Assembly (NCBI GenBank): GCA_030867685.1
Contig: JAQOWU010000008.1
Location: 930,001 to 994,000 of the forward strand
Direction: 5' to 3'
DNA from: Wickerhamiella versatilis
Taxonomy: Eukaryota
Length of the DNA: 64,000 nt
Positions 22,116 through 34,980 of the stretch are shown one piece after another (position 1 is the stretch's first letter; each line of letters opens with the position of its first letter). Position numbers and translations under genes: made by a program. The notes beneath the pieces are model-generated. The model was not told the DNA's origin and did no database searches. It was given only the letters and a program-made list of their open reading frames with translations.

Positions 22116-23266
22116 AAGGAATGACGAAGTCTGAGATGTTAGTGTTCTGTATGGATTTTAAAACAGGAGAAAACAGTCACAACCAATTCGAATAGGCACG
22201 AATGTGAGCGAAACTAGCAAGAATCAGAGGCGTCAAATTACAATGCAAGGCGCTACCTCCTATGATCACTCGAATATTGGGCGGTATGCGAATATACCCT
22301 AGCCCACACAAGCAAAACATAGGAAATATCCAGATCCCTTGGGCCTTAACAGGTGGCATGCATCGACTCAAATAAGGTTCAAGATCACATACCATAGCGA
22401 TAGGCATTGATACCCAAATCTCATAAGATTCCCGACGGCCAGTACCAGTCGAGCCCCATGGGAACCCCAAACGAGGGGTACGCAGCTGGAACTCACAGGC
22501 AACTAGGGGCCCCTCTCTCCATCACCATTGGAATAATAAGGTCAGTTAATACATGACGCAGGTAGACGAAGAAAGCTGAACCCTCGTAGAAAACCGAACC
22601 ATATGGTTCAGCCACCTCATAAGTGATTTAGACCCAAACAAGGGGGCACGAAACGACTCAGTGCATTGAAATTGGTGTGTACTGTTCTGTTAGTCCATCA
22701 AATACTTACTGATAAAAAAGGAAAGGAATAACCGTTAAGGTGTTATGTTGCGTGTAAGAGAGCGCTTGGGTCGACTCGCTTACTTTTTGTACTGTTGACT
22801 AATGTGGTTTTTTTTTGTATACTTGAGCCCTAACATCCAAGACCGCAGGGCATCTAAAAAAAATAGAAATTTCTTATAATTAAAATAGATCTATTCGAAA
22901 ATTAAAGTAGATGCGAACAGCTATTTCTGGTTATAAACCACGCAATTAGCTAGACTATGTTTCTGGACCCCCTTAAAAGAGTTGGGGTGGCGGGTATCAT
23001 TCTTAATCCGGCGGAGGCTGGTAAAGTTAGCAGACTAAGGATTGAATTTTAAAACTAAACAGCTCTATCATTTCATTCAAGCCCTCTGAGCTCCAGATGA
23101 GTGGCTTAACGCGGCCCCAACAACACAAGCCCTCGGTCGCGCCGCTGAGCCACACACGCTCTGGGATAGGGGAAGGGCTCTAAGCCCTAAGGCTGTCGAA
23201 TGTTAGTAAGGCACTCAAGCGAGGCCTGACAGTCTTGGTGCGATTTGTCAGTCAGATTATACGAGA

Positions 23267-23815
23267 ATGTCGTCGACTGAGATAGAGCAGGGTGCTGACG
23301 TTTCAGTTGTGCCTAAGTCCAACAAGCGCGCTATTAAGGCCCTGAAGGGTACTGGTGTCAAGAAAGTTGACGGTATAAACCGCGTGGTGTTGCGCAAGCG
23401 TGGTGGCATTTCTTTTGTAATTGAACAGCCTGAAGTTTACCGTACTCCTAACGGCTCCTACATTGTTCTTGGTGAGGCCCGTGTGCAGTCCCAGGATGTC
23501 GCCAAGCAGCTTGCCCAGTTGACTGGCCAGCAGCCCAACGCTGAGGACAGTGCTGCTGCCGAAGCTGCTTCCCAGGCCACCGGCACCAGTAAGTCTCCAG
23601 AGGCTATCACTGCTGACCTTGAGGCTGCTGCTGCCAAGAAGAAGGATGAGTCTGCTTCTGATGTTCCTGATGAGGAGGTCGACACCACCGGCCTTGACCA
23701 GGATAAACTTGACATGATCATGCAGCAGGCAAACTGCAACAAGAACCAGGCTGCCAAGGCATTGCGTGACCACGACGGTGACCTTGTGAATGCTCTTATG
23801 GCCCTGACCACTTAA
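23267..23815 (+). CDS. EGD2: Nascent polypeptide-associated complex alpha subunit
   Basis: NAC domain (GINRVVLRK..FVIEQPEVY..YIVLGEA) plus UBA (DGDLVNALMALT). Confidence 0.93.
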   Translation: MSSTEIEQGADVSVVPKSNKRAIKALKGTGVKKVDGINRVVLRKRGGISFVIEQPEVYRTPNGSYIVLGEARVQSQDVAKQLAQLTGQQPNAEDSAAAEAASQATGTSKSPEAITADLEAAAAKKKDESASDVPDEEVDTTGLDQDKLDMIMQQANCNKNQAAKALRDHDGDLVNALMALTT

Positions 23816-23972
23816 GAATAATTCGCTTGTATAATGAACGTTGTAAAGCGATGTTTCTCGCTCCTGCGTGCAGCCGTACAGTCCTCCTGAATTCAGTTAT
23901 GAACTGGGTTGCTATATCATCGCAGCATATTAGCTTTGTGTTAAGAAAAATGCTATAGGCAAAAAAGTAGGT

Positions 23973-24428
23973 CTAATCTTTAGGAACGGCAAACTTTTGC
24001 GTCCATTCTTTCGCGGTTGCGATAGCTTTCGCCTGGTTCTCCTTCCATTCGGAAGCTACATCGTTTGCAAGTGGGTCATCTGGATTAGGGGCGCTCAATA
24101 GAGCTTGGACAGACAATAGTGTTGTTCTGATCTGCTGTGCCGGGGACCATCGCTCTTTAAGGATGTCGAGACAGATGCGGCCAAGGCGATCTATGTTAGG
24201 GTGGTATATTCTAGTCAGAAAACGAAGACGTGGCGCCTCCATGGGGTAATCCTGCGGCAAGAACAGCTCCAGTTTGAACACGCCACCTTCGTACGGGGTA
24301 TCTATGGGACCGTCGAGTGTGACATCGAAGTAGCGGAGATTGTCGCTATGCGGCACTGCAGTAATTCCTGGTACAGGCTCTGAATTCAAACGCTGAGTCT
24401 CTTTCACAATTCGCTTGGGAAGAGACAT
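23973..24428 (-). CDS. UBC13: E2 ubiquitin-conjugating enzyme Ubc13
   Basis: [41 protein letters not shown]; intronless here. Confidence 0.93.
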
Positions 24429-24483
24429 ATCCACCACCCTCGCGCTACTCAGTGGGAGAGAGCCCGGATATGATTAGTGAGCA

Positions 24484-24765
24484 ATGGATATAGGACCGGG
24501 CAGTAACTCGGGCCCCACGGTTCGTGGACGGTTCTGGGCTGTGACACTGGGGGTGGTTATGGCTGCGGCAGCCACAATGTATATGATGAAGGATTTTCAG
24601 CTAGTAAGACGGCTTGATGATCCTAACGAGGAGCCCAAGAGACGCCCGTTCCGGGTGTCGTTTCAACCTAGCGAAAAGCTTGAGCTGAGACAGGAAGCCC
24701 AGGAACAGTTGGAATTGATGCGGCCAAAAATTCAGGAGAAAAAGGAGAAGAATGAAAGGAATTAG
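24484..24765 (+). CDS. Small single-TM hypothetical protein
   Basis: 93-aa ORF filling the gap; hydrophobic FWAVTLGVVMAAAATMYMM followed by a charged tail. Confidence 0.6.
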   Translation: MDIGPGSNSGPTVRGRFWAVTLGVVMAAAATMYMMKDFQLVRRLDDPNEEPKRRPFRVSFQPSEKLELRQEAQEQLELMRPKIQEKKEKNERN

Positions 24766-24984
24766 CTTATAAACGAACCATATTGCATTTGTACATACTG
24801 GAAGAATTTACGATATAGCGTCAGATTCTAGCTATAGGTAATTGACAAAAAATAGTCTTCTTTTGGAATAGATACTTTAGGAAGTCCTGCTTTTTTTTGT
24901 CTTGAGACAGGCGCTTAAGAGCAACCGTTCGTAGTGGCTCTCCGTCGAGGTTCGTGAGAGAAAAGAAAAAGATTAAATACCTCC

Positions 24985-26838
24985 TTACTTAGCTTCTTCC
25001 CCCTGGCTCTCCAGGAACTGCTTGTAGGCAACCAAGGCCTCCTCAACCTGCTCCTTCAGGGAAGCATCATCCTCCGCAAGAGCGAATAGATCATTGTTAT
25101 CCATATCAAGAAGCATACCCGTGATCTTTCCTGCGAGTTCATCATCGCTGTTGATTTCTGGCTGCACAAGGATCTTGGGGTATAGAGCTTCACCGATGAC
25201 CTGCTTCTGGGCCTCAGCTGGGACCCGGCTGACAATGTCACGAAGAGAGTCCTGGCTGGCGGGGGCACCGGCTGCGGCTGGAGCGGCGCCAGCTGGATAG
25301 CCAGCAGCTGGGGCCGGTGGGTAAGCACCCTTTCCTGCCTGCCATTGGCCCGCTGGAGCACCAGGTCGCTGTCCCAGCGGCGGCAAGCCTGCACCACGCG
25401 GCGGTATGATCATCTGGGGGTTGGCAGGGAAAGGCACCCTACCAGCGAATGGCATGGTCTGACCCGGGTACATGGCAAGAGGTGCACCCATGAATTGGCC
25501 AGGCAGTCCACCTGCAAGTCCTGCCTGCTGTTGCAACCGGAGCTGGTTGCGGGCATTCAGTTGCTGGCGCATCTGGGATTGACGCAGGTCCTTCCTCTGG
25601 GCAAGTGCAACATAGAGGGGCTTGTTGGCTACCATGTGCTGGTTCATCTCAGCAATTGCTCGGTTGGCTTCTTCTGGCGAAGAGTAGCACACGAAACCGA
25701 ATCCGCGCGACTTACCCTCATCGTCGGTCATTACTTTGACAGAAGTGATGCTGCCGAAAGGAGAGAAGATCTCACGGAGCTTTTCATCATCCACTGAATC
25801 GTCAAGGTTCTTCACGTAGAGGTTGATACCTTGGTACTTCGTAAGCTTCTCAAGACGGGCCTGCTCGTACTGCTTCTTGAGTTCAGACTGGCGCTCGAAC
25901 TTGTTCTGTGCACGGCCGACGTAGAGCTTCTTTCCACCCTCGACGTCCGTGTCATTAAGCTCCTCAACAGCCTTCTGAGCTGCCTCGTGTCCCTCGTAGT
26001 TAATGAACCCGAAGCCCTTGGACTTACCCTCGGCGTCAGTGGCCAAGAGGGCGCTAGTGATCTTACCGAACTTACCAAACAGCTCCTCCAGACCCTGCTG
26101 GTTGAGCGAGCGGTCCAAGTTCTTCACGTACACATTTGTGAACTTAGCCTTCTGAGCCTCGGCCTGGCTCTCGCGCTCATTGCGTGGCACGTGGTGGGCC
26201 ACATATACTGCACGGTCATTCAGAACCATACCATTCACAGTCTCAATGGCCTGGTCGGCGGCCTCTGGTGTAGCAAAGTGGATAAAGCCAAATCCCAGGC
26301 TCTGGCCCTGTGGGTTGGTCACAACCTTGCAGGACAGAATATCGCCAAAGGCATTGAAAGTGTCATGCAAAGCCTTGTTATCAATAGATGGGTCCAAGTT
26401 TTTAATGAAAATGTTGCCCTTGCCGCTCTTACGAACGCTTGGGTCACGCTGGGACCACATGATACGGCAAGGCCTACCCTTGATGATAGCGTAGTTCAAC
26501 TGATCGAGGGCCTTTCTGGCATCCTCTGGGTTGTGATAGTTGATGTACGCGTAGCCCAAACTCTCACGAGTGACAGCATCACGACAAACGCGAATGCTTG
26601 CCACAGATCCAATCGTGCTGAAAATTTCGAACAGAATGGCTTCTGTGACGCTGAGGTTCAGCTCGCCGACGTACAAAGAAGCATTCTGCATTGGCTGAGG
26701 TGCCGAAGGCTTCTCCTCACCATTTTGAGGTCCACTGGATGTAGCATCCGTAGCGGTGGCGGCGGGCTTATCCTCCACCTTAGTGGCCGAGTCCTTCAAA
26801 GACAACGACTCTAGGGCTTTCTCAGGAGCTTCTGACAT
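24985..26838 (-). CDS. PAB1: Poly(A)-binding protein
   Basis: Four RRMs (SLGYAYINY, KGFGFI, SRGFGFVCY) plus MLLE domain (KITGMLLDM). Confidence 0.98.
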   Translation of the reverse strand: MSEAPEKALESLSLKDSATKVEDKPAATATDATSSGPQNGEEKPSAPQPMQNASLYVGELNLSVTEAILFEIFSTIGSVASIRVCRDAVTRESLGYAYINYHNPEDARKALDQLNYAIIKGRPCRIMWSQRDPSVRKSGKGNIFIKNLDPSIDNKALHDTFNAFGDILSCKVVTNPQGQSLGFGFIHFATPEAADQAIETVNGMVLNDRAVYVAHHVPRNERESQAEAQKAKFTNVYVKNLDRSLNQQGLEELFGKFGKITSALLATDAEGKSKGFGFINYEGHEAAQKAVEELNDTDVEGGKKLYVGRAQNKFERQSELKKQYEQARLEKLTKYQGINLYVKNLDDSVDDEKLREIFSPFGSITSVKVMTDDEGKSRGFGFVCYSSPEEANRAIAEMNQHMVANKPLYVALAQRKDLRQSQMRQQLNARNQLRLQQQAGLAGGLPGQFMGAPLAMYPGQTMPFAGRVPFPANPQMIIPPRGAGLPPLGQRPGAPAGQWQAGKGAYPPAPAAGYPAGAAPAAAGAPASQDSLRDIVSRVPAEAQKQVIGEALYPKILVQPEINSDDELAGKITGMLLDMDNNDLFALAEDDASLKEQVEEALVAYKQFLESQGEEAK

Positions 26839-26949: not shown

Positions 26950-26972
26950 GGTCACGTGACCGGGTAAGGGTT
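26950..26972. promoter_or_regulatory. Composite site: bHLH/Cbf1 palindrome, Reb1-type site and telobox-like motif in the PAB1 promoter
   Basis: Perfect palindrome GGTCACGTGACC (26950-26961) overlapping CCGGGTAA and GGGTAAGGGTT. Confidence 0.55.
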
Positions 26973-27966: not shown

Positions 27967-28239
27967 TGTATTAGTTTTGGTAGTTAGTACTGTGCGATAC
28001 TAATCGTGGTGGGGCGCGCCCCAGGTTCATATCTGGGTAAGGGTTTAATTAGAAGCATGACAAGATCAATGGCCTACTATATTGAGACACTTTTACTTTT
28101 TTGCAGTGTGGAGAAAGAAAAGAAAAAGGTGAGCAATGCTTTGTAGCCTTACGCCAACTTCGTTCAACTTCCGACCAACGGCACTTTGAGTTCATTGTTG
28201 TAATAGTAGTTATACCTTAAATTAATTCTACGTTGATGT

Positions 28240-31200
28240 TTACGTATGTTTTTTCTTCTCGTACATCGCTGCGAGAGTCTTTGAAGGCGGTAGGACTTTA
28301 GCAGGCCAAAATTGGCGCATGTACGACCAAAGATGTTTTTTACGCCGCGAGTCCGAGTTGTAATGCTGCTGTATAAAGTCACCAATCGCAATGAGATCAT
28401 GCTTCAATTCAGTCGAATACTGTTTACGGTCAATATTCTTTTCTCGGCCTCGTTTAAGATGATGAAGGGTTGTTTCTACAGGCTTCATCGTTTTACGGCA
28501 TTCGCCCTCATCCATACTATCATACTCGGCCTCAGCACCATCGGATGCTGATGGAGGGGGCGAAGCATTAGCCTTCGACGACTTCGATGATGCGGATGCT
28601 CGACTGGAATTTGCAGATTGTTTTGGGTCCTTCTCCTTCTTCGATTTCTTTGGACGCGGTGCTGGCGACGAATCCTTTTCTTTCTCCACCTTGCGCTTTC
28701 TGGCAGGTTTCGCAGGTTTTGCGGGCCGCTGGTGTGCCTCATCAGTGCCACCTTGCAATACACTTAAAAGATAGTCAACGCGCCGGCTTAAATGTACCGA
28801 GCTAGGGCTCAAGGCCTTTTTCTTCCCTTTACCCTGCTGCTCAGCAGGACCGCCAGGTTTATTTCCTGCGGCTTCTTCTATACCGGCTTTGGCCGCACGC
28901 TCCTCATCTTTCGTATCCAAAAACATCTTGTCACTGAGCTTCAACGTTGGATCATCCCTGATCAGAGACCAAGCACCATATCCATATCTTCGAACACCCA
29001 CAAGCAACTCTGAGTCTTCTTTATTGGTCCAAGGCACCGACCAGTCATTCACAGGCTTCAAATTTGCTGGGAATAGCCACCCCGGTTCATTCTGAGGCAC
29101 TTTTTCTCTCAGTAGCTGCATCTCAACAGGCCTATTCAGAACCAGCTCACCATTTACACCTTTAACTCCTCGAAACTCAAAAAGAATAGCCTTCTTTTCC
29201 ATTTTCTTGAGAAGTGCGGCCTCCTGGTTAGGATTCCCACCCGCAGCAGCCTTAGCCTCTTCGGCACGACGCTCATGCTCTCGAGTGACTTCTGCCCGTG
29301 AGCTGTCAACTAATTGCCGCCATGCTTGCTTGATTAATTCAGGCCGCCGACTTGGAACATTGCCTTCTTTGAAAAGCTTGGACCACTGCTTGTCGATATC
29401 ACCAAATCGGATAACCGCTCTATAGAGTGCACGTATTTCCTTTTCTGTGAGACCCTTAGGACCTCCCTTTTTCTTCGTGGCACCATCGTCGTCATCCTCA
29501 ACATCTGAGGCGTTTTGTGATGACTCGGTCGCTCGCACGGCCGCACGACGTTTCTGGGACATCTCAATCTGCTGATTTAGGAATTCCTCTTCCTTACGCT
29601 CTCTTTCCTCCTGTTTCAACACCTTCAACTCGTCCTCAGGGATGATCTCATCCCAGGTCACATCAGCCTTGTAGTCGGTGACTTCGAACTGCTTGAGGAA
29701 TTCCTCGCCACCCAGGTGACTCTCACCCAATTCTGGGGTTGTAACATGGTCCTCGGCATGATCAAGAACATCGTCTAGGTTCATGTTTTCCAGTTTCTTC
29801 TGGTTATTATTTGCCTGGAACATACTTGCTGCACCGAATTTCAAAATCTCACTGAGCTCGGTCGAGCTCGGCTCGTCCTTCTTGGAGTTTCGATTGTTAT
29901 CAGTTATACCCAACGAAATCACCGCATATTCCAAAATCATTTTCCGTCGTGCTCGTTCAAGAACCTGTTCCTCCACCGTGTCCCTAGACACAAATCGATA
30001 TATCATAACGTGCTTCTTCTGGCCGATCCTATGAGCACGGGCCATTGCCTGGAGATCAGCCTGTGGATTCCAGTCGCTGTCAAAAATAATAACAGTGTCG
30101 GCGGTCATCAAATTGATACCAAGCCCACCTGCACGGGTGGAAAGCAAAAATACGAAGTCAGGACTATCTGGAGAATTATAATGGTCAATTGCAACACGAC
30201 GCTGGGCTGCTGGGACTGTACCATCCAGCCGCTGATAAGCAAATCCTCGAATAGCCATATAGTCTGCCAATATATCAAGCATGCGCACCATTTGGCTAAA
30301 AATCAATACCCTATGTCCATCTCTTCGGAGCCTAGTGAGAAGCTTGTCGAGCAAGACCATTTTGCCGGAATTCATAATTAACCCGCGAAGAGTATCTTCC
30401 CGGGTAGGCTTCTTAGACAGCGCGACATCGAATTGGTGTTCGGCATTTGGGAACAAATATGGATGGTTCGATGCCTTCTTCAACTCAGACATCACATTCA
30501 GCAGACTCATTTTGCTGCCGGAGGCGGCACCTGCATTAAGGGCAGAATAATTATGAGAAATAATGTTTTTATAGTACTGCGTTTGCATATCACTCAGCTC
30601 CACTCGGAGAATCCGCTCGGTTTTAGAGGGCAAGCTCTTCTCCACATCCTTCTTCAACCGACGAAGGATAAATGGTTGCAAACGTTTGTGCAAATCACGG
30701 ATATACTCTTCCTGGACAGCATCGGGCTGTTCAAAATCTATTTCTTGATCAATGTGAAAATGACCAGGCATCAGGAAGTCCACAAGAGCAGCGAGTTCCT
30801 TGATGTTATTCTGGAGCGGCGTTCCTGTGATAAGCAATCGGTTGCCAACTTTGAACTCGCGAAGAGATTCGTAGAGAGCACTCTCACTGTTTTTCAAGCG
30901 ATGTGCTTCATCCACAGCGAGAAATTGCCAGCGAATGCTTCCCAACTCGTTGCGGTCTTTCAGGATATATTCGTAAGTTGTTACCAGTACGTTGAAGCGT
31001 GGACGCCTGTTTGCGGCGTTAGGATTTACCCAAAATTCGTGTTCCCGAATCGCCTCACGTGCTTTAGTGTTGCCAAAATACATGACTGTATTGAGGTCTG
31101 GAGCCCACGTTTCGAATGTCTCCTGCCATGATGGGACGGTTGACAGGGGCACGACGACAAGATGAGGGCCGTTTTGTTTTCTCCCATAAATTAGCCAGGA

Positions 31201-32322
31201 TAGGAAGGCCACCGTTTGTACAGTCTTACCAAGACCCATTTCGTCGGCCAATATTCCGTTCTCATTGCGAGACCACAAAAAGGCCATCCAGTTCACACCG
31301 GTTATTTGGAAGTCACGCAATTCACCCCCCTGAACGAAGTCTGGCTGCTCCTCCATCTTACGGAACTTTGGTCGGTTGTTTGAGGCATATGTGACCGAAT
31401 ACTGGGGAGATATACGGGAGTTCAGCCGGTTCTGGTAAGCCTCGACTTGTTTTGGTGCAATGCCTGCGATAACATCAGCACTTTCCCATGTGCACTGATC
31501 ATAATTAAGCCGTCGCCACTTAACCAAATAGTGTAAACTTGGAATGCCATTCTCTTCATCCGCACGACGTTCTGACAAAACTATACGCTCCACATTCTTA
31601 TACTCGTCGAGATTTTCGCGTACACGTTCGCGCTCAATGTCCATTGCCTCCAGGTCTTCTCCAGTTGTGGAAGGGTCGGAGCGGATTTCGTGGTCCAGTA
31701 CTATGGCCTGCTTGATGTAATTCTCCACACGTTTTGAGCCTTTGAATCCCGATAATGACGACCACTGTTCCCACGTATTGTGCAGATGCGATTTCCCAGC
31801 CCACTTGATCAGAAACTCGAAGTGGGCCTTCGGATTATCGATGAGCTCGTCCGGCTTGACATCTTCTTCATGTTTTATCGGCCGATGGTCCAGCACCGCG
31901 TCGATGGCAATGACAGGTCCAGTTTCCTCTGGTTCTGCAGCTGTATCCAGCAGCTGTAGACTCTCCTCACTTGTAAGATCGTCTGGATCATCCAAATCGT
32001 CATCTTCATCATCGCCGTCACTTTCGTCCGAATTCCAAACGTATGGGTTCGTCTTCTTTTTTCGCGACGTTGACCGACCCACAGGCTTTGGTTTCGTGAC
32101 ATTTGGCTTCGGCTGTGACTTCTTGCGGCTTGACTGATGTGCCGGCCGTCCGTATTCATCGTCTGTCGCGTCACTATCAAAGGGCTCACTCACCTCGCTA
32201 TCCGCAGGCCCATCATCGTTAAAATCACTCTCAGACGTGTTATACTGAGTTTGCGCATTTGAACGCTGGCTTCGACGCAACCCGTAAAGCTCTGGGTTGC
32301 TGTAGACCTCGTTGAAGTCCAT
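28240..32322 (-). CDS. CHD1: Chromodomain-helicase chromatin remodeler Chd1
   Basis: PELYGLRRS, double chromodomain, [25 protein letters not shown]-terminal DUF4208-like region. First ATG is at 32322. Confidence 0.97.
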
Positions 32323-32479
32323 CAGGCAGCTTGAGTTTGGCGGCGCTGTCAGCAAATGGCAGGTCCACGGCCTCCCAGTAGGGAGAAAACCGCTGAACAA
32401 TTAGAAGGTAATGCTAAGTATACGTGCAAGATATATAAATAATACTCGAATTCCACAAAAGTAATTAGTGTCTAAATCA

Positions 32480-33270
32480 AATGCACACCCCAAAGATGTG
32501 CCCCCATCGACTGTCCAATCAGAGGCTTCAGATGCTCTGAGACATTCATAGGGAGTGATAGTGCTGGTGTCTATAGGGAAACTGGGCCAAACAGTTTCTC
32601 AGTGGCGGAAAACGAGCCATCAACAACAACCTGACAGGGGACGCCAGGAAATACAATGCCTAGCTGGCTGGTATGGCTCCCGTTGAAGCCAATCTCAAGC
32701 CAGAGCTATGACAACGAATTCTGAGACGACAAAGTGCGATCTTCTGTTATCTCTGTTACTGTATCCAGCATCACTTGAGTCAAGGGCCCGTCCCCACGTC
32801 CCAGGCCCTTGATTCCAAGATGGAGGCCACACCTCTTCTCTACAGGCTGCATGGTGTGGGCAAGAGGTTGTGGAAAGGCATAAACCTGGCGAGATGCTGA
32901 AAATAAACTGCCTTAGTTTCCCAGCACCCGTCCCGTCAGCATACAATACAGACAAGAGCCAGGCATCATTAAACCCCAAATCACAGCCTGGAACCACACC
33001 CTGGTGATGCCCAAAGGCCGACATTAAAGTCAGGCGGTCAGGTCATATTCAAATGCATTTCCAGACTGCACACAGAACTTGCAAAGTGATGCGTGTATTT
33101 ACAGAGAGCAAGAGGCATTGGCCTGGACCCCAACAAGCTCTAACCAGTGATAGACATCCCATGGATCCCACTAGCGACCACCTCCACAGAGGTATGCCAG
33201 CTAGACGCTTCGGTCCTGCCTTGCACGCTCCTTTATTTGCTAATTTGAGAAGTCAGCTTGGGGGAGAGGG
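32480..33270 (-). ncRNA. Candidate large structured ncRNA (telomerase RNA-like)
   Basis: Many nested inverted repeats including end-to-end pairing; no credible CDS. Most imperfect pairs read as G-U on the minus strand. See findings. Confidence 0.55.
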
Positions 33271-33714
33271 GTAGCCACGGTCCAGGGCTGGAGGCTGGTT
33301 GGGAGAATTAGAAGGAGGGATGAATAACAATGGGTAAGGGTATACAGCGCGAATTACGCAATAAGTTTTTGGGCTCCTTGGGGTGATGTAGGGGGGAAAG
33401 TTAAGAACCTTAATGAAAAGTAGCTTGAGTTTAATTGATATAAACGCGGCAAGATGAAAATTAAACTGGTTTCAGAGGTCGATGATCTCAAGAAACCTTA
33501 GCCTGGAGTCCGATTATGCTTGACGTAAGACCCACATTCTAGAAGAGTCACACTAGCTGACCAGCGTCATCCATTACGTAACAAGTAACATCATTGGTCT
33601 TTACAAGTAAACTGCTCAAATCAAGCGACAGTAAAAAGGGTTTGCACTTTTCATACGCTTGCCATCAACAATAATTGATATTGTGAATTCTTCTGCGCGC
33701 CAATTGCCCTCTGT

Positions 33715-34980
33715 ATGGCGGAAACATTCCGGCAACGGTTCAAGGAGGTTGCGGCGCTCAACCGTGGCTCTTTTGGTCTAGTCACTCTCGTTGAAGAATT
33801 GAAAACAGGCAAGAAATATGCGGCAAAGCGCATTGATGTGGCAGAGGATGCCGAACTGGAGTATAGTGCACATGTGCAGCTTGGGGATCACCCAAACATC
33901 CTGAAGGTTGTGGCCTATTACAAGGAAGAGGACTGCCATCGTCTCATATTGGAATATGCGGATGGTGGCGATTTGCATGAGGCAATCTCACGTAGCGACA
34001 GCGAAGGACTTCGTAGAGAGACTATCCGGATGGTCCTCGAGCAGCTTGTTGATGCGTTGAGCTACTGCCATTCACGTGGCATCTGCCATCGTGACATTAA
34101 GCCCGAGAATATATTGCTTGCAGCAGATGGAACTGTAAAGGTTGCTGATTGGGGGTTGGCTTCGTTTGAGACGATGTCCAGCGAGTTTAATCTGGGCTCT
34201 GAGCAGTACATGGCACCCGAGTGCTTTGATCCAAAAGCTGGGGAATACGATGCGGCAAAGGCTGACATCTGGGCAGTGGGGATTGTTCTCCTCAACTGCT
34301 TATTCGGCCGTAATCCGTTCAAGGTGGCGAATGGGACAGACCGCTTGTTCACCGACTTCGCAAGTAGTCGTGAAGCCCTCTTTGATATCTTCCCCACCCT
34401 TTCGCAAGATGTATTTGCCGTGCTTAGACACTCACTGACCATTGACCCTGATAATCGTAGTTTAGAAGGGGTGCGGGCTGCCCTGGCCAATGTGAAGACA
34501 TGGACTACCGATGAGGAGCTTGATATGCTCTCTCCGGCTTCCTACGAATTTGCCCCTCCCTCGAAGGCAGTCGGCATACGTCGGCCTTTCCGAGTCCCTA
34601 CGGCTGTTTCTGGCCAGGCGACGCCCTGTGAGAGCTGGCACCGTGAGTCAAAGTATACCCCCCCATCTCATCGCTGCCTCTTCTCCAGTGCCTTTCCCCT
34701 GACACAGTTGGATGAGGAGAGTAGTGAGGAATATAATGACACCGAGGAAAGCTCGCCTAGTGGTACCCGCGTTGACGACGGTGTGTTTGCTATGGATGGG
34801 TTGGTAGATAGCTTAGCAGCACTTTCGACTTCCTCTTCTACGTCCAGCAGTAATGCATTTATCATCAATGATTTAGACGAGCCCCGCTCATGGGCCGATG
34901 ATGATGATTATTTTCCGGTTGTGCCAAAAGGTGATAAAATGATGTTGCGTTTGGCACAAAGCGCTGATACATTCAGCTAA
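33715..34980 (+). CDS. KSP1: Ser/Thr protein kinase, Ksp1 (Ran1-like) family
   Basis: GSFGLV, HRDIKPENIL, DWGLA, RNPF, REALFDIFP..SQD...LTIDPDNRSL. Confidence 0.82.
   Translation: MAETFRQRFKEVAALNRGSFGLVTLVEELKTGKKYAAKRIDVAEDAELEYSAHVQLGDHPNILKVVAYYKEEDCHRLILEYADGGDLHEAISRSDSEGLRRETIRMVLEQLVDALSYCHSRGICHRDIKPENILLAADGTVKVADWGLASFETMSSEFNLGSEQYMAPECFDPKAGEYDAAKADIWAVGIVLLNCLFGRNPFKVANGTDRLFTDFASSREALFDIFPTLSQDVFAVLRHSLTIDPDNRSLEGVRAALANVKTWTTDEELDMLSPASYEFAPPSKAVGIRRPFRVPTAVSGQATPCESWHRESKYTPPSHRCLFSSAFPLTQLDEESSEEYNDTEESSPSGTRVDDGVFAMDGLVDSLAALSTSSSTSSSNAFIINDLDEPRSWADDDDYFPVVPKGDKMMLRLAQSADTFS

Follow-up and report, generated by a model that had tools for sequence, protein, structure and literature searches.

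In the 64-kb stretch of DNA analysed here (the window), a gap of 1392 nt separates CHD1 from a Ser/Thr kinase gene, and the initial annotation had placed a structured RNA between these two genes, naming them CHD1 and KSP1. The first name was borne out, as the core of the CHD1 protein is 83% identical to CHD1 of Sugiyamaella lignohabitans and 80-81% identical to its counterparts in Trichomonascus, Lipomyces and Yarrowia. The second gene is best called KSP1-like, its best named match being KSP1 of Wickerhamiella sorbophila at 40% identity, and the kinase homologues in the closest public assemblies show 99%, 79% and 46% identity. The source organism can be placed only broadly, among early-branching budding yeasts of the Dipodascales type. 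The gap, which had been described as among the longest in a compact region, ranks third in the window among gaps between ORFs of at least 200 aa. The longest of these (22116-24984) contains smaller genes, and by eye its translations include a NAC-alpha-like ORF of 182 aa and a UBC13-like ORF of 151 aa. The CHD1-kinase gap has no repeat copies elsewhere in the 64-kb window; being single-copy there, it is not accounted for by a repeat or transposon, which is ruled out.

PAB1 (24985-26838, minus strand) is encoded on the CHD1 strand as well, two genes further downstream. In S. cerevisiae CHD1 and PAB1 are direct neighbours, and part of an ancient CHD1-PAB1 neighbourhood seems to have been kept in the window. 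The homologues of the kinase and of CHD1 in two relatives appear to share a contig in each case, their longest contigs being of identical length (22,417 nt for P0002 and P0126; 30,007 nt for P0003 and P0129), which suggests that the adjacency of the two genes is conserved in both. The features discussed below are collected in Table 1.

Table 1. Position, strand and basis of the features at the CHD1-kinase gap (coordinates of the window)
Feature	Position	Strand	Basis and remarks
CHD1 ORF	28240-32322	minus	protein comparison
KSP1-like Ser/Thr kinase ORF	33715-34980	plus	protein comparison
RNA transcription unit	32407-33278	minus	RNA-seq; ~0.81-0.87 kb before tail; unspliced
5'-end cluster	33241, 33259, 33272, 33278	minus	reverse-complement adaptor GTATCAACGCAGAGTACATGGG at read ends, X12 and X13
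3'-end cluster, taken as poly(A) sites	32407, 32418, 32431	minus	read-start pile-ups, two PolyA libraries
Motif GGGTAAGGG (sense CCCTTACCC)	33332-33340	minus	55-100 nt upstream of RNA 5' ends
A/T-rich TATA-like block	32431-32448	minus	sequence; ~95-105 nt upstream of CHD1 5' end
Sm-like string AAUUACUUUUGUGG	32453-32466	minus	sequence; 22-59 nt before 3' ends; C where U run should begin
Longest ORF, 109 aa	32695-33024	minus	judged not a conserved CDS
Template-like direct repeat CCUGACCGCCUGAC	33029-33042	minus	8-nt period, 6-nt overlap; candidate
Second template-like repeat CCACAACCUCUUGCCCACA	32855-32873	minus	14-nt period, 5-nt overlap; C/A-rich; candidate
25-nt-period template candidate	32548-32579	minus	four variable places, one with three alleles
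Complementary pair 1	32501-32512/33251-33264	either	pairing computed
Complementary pair 2	32660-32668/33196-33204	either	pairing computed
Complementary pair 3	32752-32764/32941-32952	either	pairing computed
Complementary pair 4	32777-32788/32804-32815	either	pairing computed
Complementary pair 5	32827-32837/32862-32873	either	pairing computed
Complementary pair 6	32962-32968/33005-33011	either	pairing computed

A discrete transcript on the minus strand

Reads of three RNA-seq runs labelled as the same species and coming from two studies (X9, X12 and X13, the latter two being PolyA libraries) were mapped to 32100-33900 and kept at 95% identity, and a contig set under another organism label (X1) was compared over the same interval. 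A discrete transcript is present in all three runs, and it derives from the minus strand, the one favoured in the initial annotation. The strand follows from the orientation of the adaptor GTATCAACGCAGAGTACATGGG, which we take to be the SMART template-switch oligo: it stands in forward orientation before 33580/33583, where the plus-strand kinase mRNA begins, and is reversed at the 5' ends of the new RNA. The majority of its molecules begin at 33241-33262, the depth in 33259-33319 being about one tenth of that in the preceding bin; beyond 33320 the depth is below 8, and it is near zero across 33320-33563. The kinase mRNA has its 5' end (33580-33583) 132-135 nt upstream of the ATG, and the divergent promoter region common to the kinase and the new RNA measures only about 300 nt. 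Since no splice joints were reported in any of the four mapped sets (the three RNA runs and X1), the RNA is regarded as unspliced.

The summed depth over the body of the RNA is 200-690 in X9, 176-526 in X12 and 268-840 in X13, as compared with ~90-100, 6-11 and 7-17 at the 5' end of CHD1 and with ~430-570, 117-156 and 296-378 over the kinase mRNA. The depth over the RNA is thus about as high as over the kinase mRNA and 7-50 times as high as at the 5' end of CHD1. Its internal profile is distorted and unreliable, owing to the 95% identity filter and to the changes in the RNA strain, of which there are up to 7 per 108 nt. In the PolyA libraries the depth is skewed toward the 3' end of the RNA, and we infer polyadenylation from the library label together with the pile-ups, the tails themselves lying outside the part of the reads shown. 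The adaptor at the 5' ends, the pile-ups that both PolyA libraries show at the 3' ends and the lack of joints are the marks of a polyadenylated Pol II lncRNA, and plain promoter DNA devoid of a transcript is ruled out by the RNA-seq data. The G+C content of the RNA body (0.45-0.53) is coding-like, while the other spacers in the window range from 0.36 to 0.42, which suggests more than promoter-associated transcription.

Downstream of the RNA, the molecules of CHD1 begin at 32339 (9 molecules, adjoining depth 22), and the depth in X9 falls from 67 to 1.6 across 32343/32344. The interval 32344-32404 is a clean gap in X9, with a depth below 2; the PolyA libraries X12 and X13 have a depth of 6-9 there, which is ~1-2% of that of the RNA and resembles the depth at the 5' end of CHD1. 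This may reflect transcripts of the RNA that continue into CHD1, or else a CHD1 start farther upstream in that strain or condition. We infer that the A/T-rich block in this region is the TATA box of CHD1, and it is likely to double as the poly(A) signal of the RNA.

The Sm consensus is A-U(4-6)-G. The string AAUUACUUUUGUGG, earlier singled out as the closest approach to an Sm site on the minus strand, is indeed found at 32466-32453 in imperfect form; it departs from the consensus and lies inside the A/T-rich terminator, where such strings are common. It is followed on the minus strand (32392-32445) by GUAUUA, UUCUAAU and CAG, in an intron-like order spanning ~54 nt, which is reminiscent of the spliceosomal 3'-end processing of some fungal telomerase RNAs; no spliced or cleaved reads were reported for this stretch, and the poly(A) sites lie inside it.

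Upstream of the RNA, the motif GGGTAAGGG had been taken for a telobox. Its position is correct, but it lies outside the RNA (depth ~0-4) and recurs in two other promoters, which speaks against a telobox. The window contains three copies (26962-26970, 28035-28043 and 33332-33340), all on the plus strand and within 6.4 kb, as against 0.62 expected; three copies are reached in 3 of 100 shuffles. All copies are oriented alike, each 55-125 nt upstream of one of three minus-strand units, namely PAB1, a gene of 253 aa and the new RNA, and the copy in the PAB1 promoter abuts CACGTG. The sense string CCCTTACCC resembles the Reb1 site TTACCCG. The motif is best read as a promoter element rather than a telomere relic, and a general promoter factor probably binds it.

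Coding potential

The 109-aa ORF begins at the sixth AUG of the RNA and is preceded by ORFs of 37, 5, 26, 6 and 2 aa, the first of which carries a 1-nt insertion in X1, behind 33127. Pfam has no match for the 109-aa ORF, and among 13 reading-frame pieces it recognised no family except for a single chance-level match, with E 0.23, to a tail fibre of phage T4 (bit score 11.9, the cut-off being 26); a relic of a protein gene was rejected on these grounds. In a word-indexed search of 5.8 billion proteins the ORF matched itself only, and the relative with the 79%-identical kinase has proteins in that same collection. A HMMER search of 1.84 billion representatives returned the ORF itself and three weak matches of 36-39% identity over short stretches. 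The weak matches are read as compositional, and two of them sit in very long multi-stretch proteins.

Across the three strains, 12 nucleotides of the ORF are variable, 10 of them non-synonymous and 2 synonymous, and the replacements between strains are radical (V>E, G>W, P>L, R>E); the ORF is open in all three. Neither an ORF under purifying selection nor a homologous protein was thus found in these searches, as is expected of a lncRNA. The late AUG, the 10:2 ratio and the lack of a Pfam family or homologue agree with the earlier statement that the gap holds no credible CDS. All in all, the RNA does not look protein-coding; that it encodes a young protein restricted to the species keeps a small probability.

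Folding and known RNA families

Structure was the feature that had drawn attention to the locus. All six complementary pairs described for it exist where they were reported and can pair on both strands, with duplex energies of -6.7 to -21.1 kcal/mol, and the 9-bp helix CTAGCTGGC/GCCAGCTAG (pair 2) is perfect in the sequence of the window. The description of the region as highly structured did not hold. The minimum free energy of 32480-33270 (791 nt) has a z-score of -1.31 on the plus strand and -1.05 on the minus strand, and for either strand an equal or lower energy is reached by 2 of 20 dinucleotide shuffles; the comparison with shuffled controls, which the initial annotation itself had named as a check, thus gives folding no better than shuffled. 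Local folding in fifteen 150-nt windows of the minus strand ranges from z +1.68 to -2.36. Perfect inverted repeats were likewise compared with 300 dinucleotide shuffles: at k=10 there are none (0.34 expected), at k=9 three (1.57 expected; 65/300 shuffles reach this number), at k=8 eight (5.98 expected; 88/300) and at k=7 there is a mild enrichment, with 34 observed and 23.8 expected (16/300).

The evidence on the related claim, that imperfect pairs mostly become G-U pairs on the minus strand, is mixed: two helices are stabler on that strand, one is stabler on the plus strand and three are equal. In the expressed strain, a change at 33201 converts a G-C pair of the 9-bp helix to A.C on the transcribed strand, and no compensating change occurs at 32663 in that strain; the alignment of the three near-identical strains displays no compensatory changes. 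The six pairs (130 nt) hold 1 of the 23 changes of the RNA strain, with 3.4 expected (23 x 130/872). The structural argument is not above chance.

Rfam gives no match at the gathering level in the whole 64-kb window. With E values up to 10, the interval 32300-33750 yields only four chance-level matches, to animal miRNA and lncRNA models, and even at this level none to the telomerase models. ARAGORN finds no tRNA genes in the window.

Variation between strains

Compared with the window, the RNA strain carries changes at 23 of the 872 nt of the RNA (2.6%), all within 32536-33232, and at 2 places in ~580 nt of flanking genic sequence. Of the 25 changes in X12, 23 thus fall in 32536-33232 and two in CHD1 (32149 and 32230, both third codon positions), with none in 33564-33900; this tally covers the places listed, and X9 has one further place outside them. 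Two silent changes in ~90 silent sites of CHD1 correspond to a neutral rate comparable to that of the RNA, although very imprecise. This suggests that the primary sequence of the RNA changes about as fast as neutral DNA, the rate being taken from those two silent changes.

The X1 contigs carry 56 changes and 6 gaps over 1800 nt. Since 24 of these 56 changes are shown, those in X1 only ending at 32733, X1 was left out of the spatial statistics and the clustering result was set aside. In 32557-32643, X1 has 11 differences in 87 nt, its listing being incomplete, and the RNA strain has 6; the place 32557 has three alleles (G, A, C). Variation seems to be locally concentrated in this stretch, which belongs to the 3' third of the RNA.

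Template-like repeats and telomere sequences

Direct repeats with an overlap of at least 6 nt and periods of 5-30 number 8 in the RNA and 4.3 +/- 2.2 in shuffles. The first and most telomere-like candidate, CCUGACCGCCUGAC, would specify (GGCGGTCA)n in the window and (GGCAGTCA)n in the other two strains; its unit shares AGTCAGG with the Yarrowia repeat TTAGTCAGGG, and its predicted unpaired probability is 0.17-0.28, as compared with a mean of 0.34 over the RNA. Place 33036 within it reads G in the window but A in both the RNA strain and X1, so that, if this were the template, close strains would carry different telomere repeats. The second candidate, CCACAACCUCUUGCCCACA, lies in a block identical between the window and the RNA strain; the hairpin 32827-32837/32862-32873 takes one of its arms (32862-32873) from the 5' two-thirds of this repeat, and many overlaps as short as the one seen here (5 nt) are expected by chance. 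By predicted accessibility no template candidate is prominent in the RNA except a G-rich hairpin loop, and the RNA has no CCCUAA-type stretch. The C-rich strings at the 5' terminus (33261-33271) were rejected as a template: most molecules lack them, the depth beyond 33259 being ~1/10 of that of the body.

Telomere repeats are published for relatives: the Yarrowia clade has TTNNNNAGGG (PMC6746865), Trichomonascus vanleenenianus has TAGAACGGG (PMC13130702) and Lipomyces oligophaga has TTTGAGGG (PMC6692504), and deep budding-yeast lineages are described as keeping a TTAGGG-like motif with a spacer (PMC12449055). The repeat of the closest lineage is not given in the main texts of PMC12983215, PMC13376923, PMC12449055, PMC12412787 and PMC7857110, nor in those of PMC6692504, PMC4022394, PMC13130702 and PMC6746865. 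A metagenome scan for tandem (GTCAGGCR) returned at least 118 stretches, their G+C content ranging from 0.37 to 0.77. Most of the 80 listed are internal, and the ones close to ends have mixed orientation. They are regarded as generic microsatellites, uninformative either way. A full-text literature search for 14-mers of (GTCAGGCR) found four unrelated primer matches only.

Discussion

The locus is best explained by an independent Pol II lncRNA gene of ~0.85 kb, which lies on the minus strand, runs into the CHD1 promoter and would act most likely in cis, a reading that we hold with about even confidence. The defined strand and ends, the non-coding character, the lack of an Rfam match and of excess structure, and the fast change all support a lncRNA. 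The RNA has its own promoter region, divergently shared with the kinase gene, and it accumulates to mRNA-like levels, poly(A)-selected libraries included. Its 3' ends (32407-32431) are situated 68-92 nt upstream of the CHD1 5' end (32339), past the TATA-like block, and each round of its transcription would cross the CHD1 upstream region, which makes a function in cis the most likely one. Transcription and termination over the CHD1 promoter may then set or dampen the initiation of CHD1, by tandem interference of the SRG1-SER3 type, and there would be little constraint on the sequence of the RNA product. The cis reading draws on the geometry of the 3' ends and on the promoter motif common to PAB1 and one other gene. 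Geometry alone is no proof of regulation, since a spacing of ~100 nt from a poly(A) site to the start of the following gene is ordinary in this compact genome, and modulation of CHD1 initiation by the transcription of the RNA, suggested by analogy, is weakly held. Against the cis reading stand the coding-like G+C content of the RNA, which the mechanism leaves unexplained, an Sm-like site where a yeast TER (telomerase RNA) or snRNA would carry one, and the 109-aa ORF that is open in three strains.

In S. cerevisiae, the abundant polyadenylated ncRNA SRG1 crosses the upstream region of SER3 on the same strand and ends near the SER3 start. The new RNA is likewise a same-strand, upstream, abundant and non-coding transcript that ends close to the start of CHD1. 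SRG1 is the shorter of the two, however, and both its regulation and its effect on SER3 have been demonstrated, whereas an effect on CHD1 is only proposed; unlike the SRG1-SER3 arrangement, most of the new RNA ends 68-92 nt before the CHD1 start. A second comparison is with the SUTs, polyadenylated Pol II RNAs of several hundred nt with no conserved ORFs and little sequence constraint, properties that the new RNA shares. Most SUTs are weak, and are antisense to or divergent from gene promoters, whereas the new RNA has the abundance of the neighbouring mRNA, a dedicated 1.4-kb spacer and a coding-like G+C content.

The transcript may alternatively be the mRNA of a young, species-restricted small protein, encoded by the 109-aa ORF or a shorter one. 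Its polyadenylation, its mRNA-like level and ends and its coding-like G+C content would suit an mRNA, as would an ORF that is open in three strains and is called as protein P0121 in a public assembly. Yet five AUGs precede that ORF, its 10 non-synonymous and 2 synonymous differences include radical replacements, no domain was found in it, and no homologue came to light despite the presence in the same collection of a relative with a 79%-identical kinase, all of which renders this explanation very improbable. Less improbable, but still quite unlikely, is a trans-acting structured ncRNA of an undescribed kind (of the Sm class, for example), which would act via its folded product. Such an RNA would account for an abundant, discrete transcript that is G+C-rich for a spacer, for the Sm-like site AAUUACUUUUGUGG and for the two hairpins of 9-11 bp (32777-32815 and 32827-32873), which fall in a 145-nt stretch unchanged between the window and the RNA strain. 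However, folding is no better than in shuffles, the change at 33201 disrupts the long-range helix, and with 23 changes in the RNA a stretch of 145 nt free of them is unremarkable (for 33 places P was still 0.07, the X1 changes beyond ~32733 being incomplete).

The proposal made at the outset was a TER or another novel large ncRNA. Its second part stands, in that an abundant, unspliced and apparently non-coding transcript is present; its first part is the less probable of the two. TERs of budding yeasts are transcribed by Pol II, contain a template, have an Sm site close to the mature 3' end and occur also in a longer, polyadenylated form, and rapid sequence divergence is usual in TERs. The stand-alone, non-coding Pol II RNA of 0.81-0.87 kb fits this picture, as it is a discrete transcript within ~0.5-2 kb devoid of coding capacity, and so would the imperfect Sm-like string AAUUACUUUUGUGG at 22-59 nt before the 3' ends, the fast sequence change, the presence of template-like repeats and the fact that no Rfam family claims the RNA. 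Yet the template-like repeats are at chance level; the best of them, CCUGACCGCCUGAC, varies between strains at 33036 and lies mostly in paired positions of the predicted fold, and the 25-nt-period candidate carries four variable places. The RNA has no CCCUAA-type stretch, whereas relatives have TTAGGG-like repeats with spacers (PMC12449055, PMC13130702). No Rfam telomerase model matches at E 10, folding is not in excess, neither a pseudoknot nor a three-way junction can be supported, and the change is near-neutral overall. The locus is also not syntenic with the Yarrowia TER, which is located between FRE2 and FRE3 (PMC6746865). On balance a TER is unlikely, and the specific form of this idea, a TER of ~0.82 kb from an early-branching lineage that has no described TER, found in poly(A)-selected RNA and with its template among the listed repeats, is slightly more doubtful still. 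Annotation of the RNA as a TER is not justified by the present evidence.

The comparison with the Yarrowia-clade TERs (Cervenak et al. 2019, PMC6746865) illustrates both sides. There too, a Pol II transcript of ~0.9 kb occupies its own spacer in early-branching budding yeasts; it carries an imperfect Sm-type site toward its 3' end, occurs in longer forms that are polyadenylated, and diverges fast in sequence. The TER of Y. lipolytica measures ~950 nt and has both the longer polyadenylated forms and the imperfect Sm site (PMC6746865). In Yarrowia, however, the locus was defined by a match of 1.5 repeats to the telomere sequence TTAGTCAGGG, and its deletion shortened the telomeres (PMC6746865). 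The template was thus matched to a known telomere, whereas the candidates here come from the RNA sequence alone, and the neighbours differ, being FRE2 and FRE3 in Yarrowia and CHD1 and the KSP1-like gene for the new RNA (PMC6746865). In contrast to the Yarrowia TERs, no conserved pseudoknot, template boundary or three-way junction can be supported for the new RNA.

Conclusions

The present work adds a real, abundant and previously unannotated lncRNA gene to a compact yeast genome, at a locus where gene callers already predict a spurious 109-aa protein. Were the RNA a TER after all, it would supply the template, and thus the telomere repeat, of a poorly studied lineage, and would add to what Yarrowia and its relatives have shown of how telomere repeats evolve; with the 8-nt template the repeat would be (GGCRGTCA)n, related to the spacer-type repeat of Yarrowia. 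If, as in the favoured reading of a Pol II lncRNA acting in cis, the RNA acts on the CHD1 promoter, it would represent a case of tandem interference at the gene of a chromatin remodeller.
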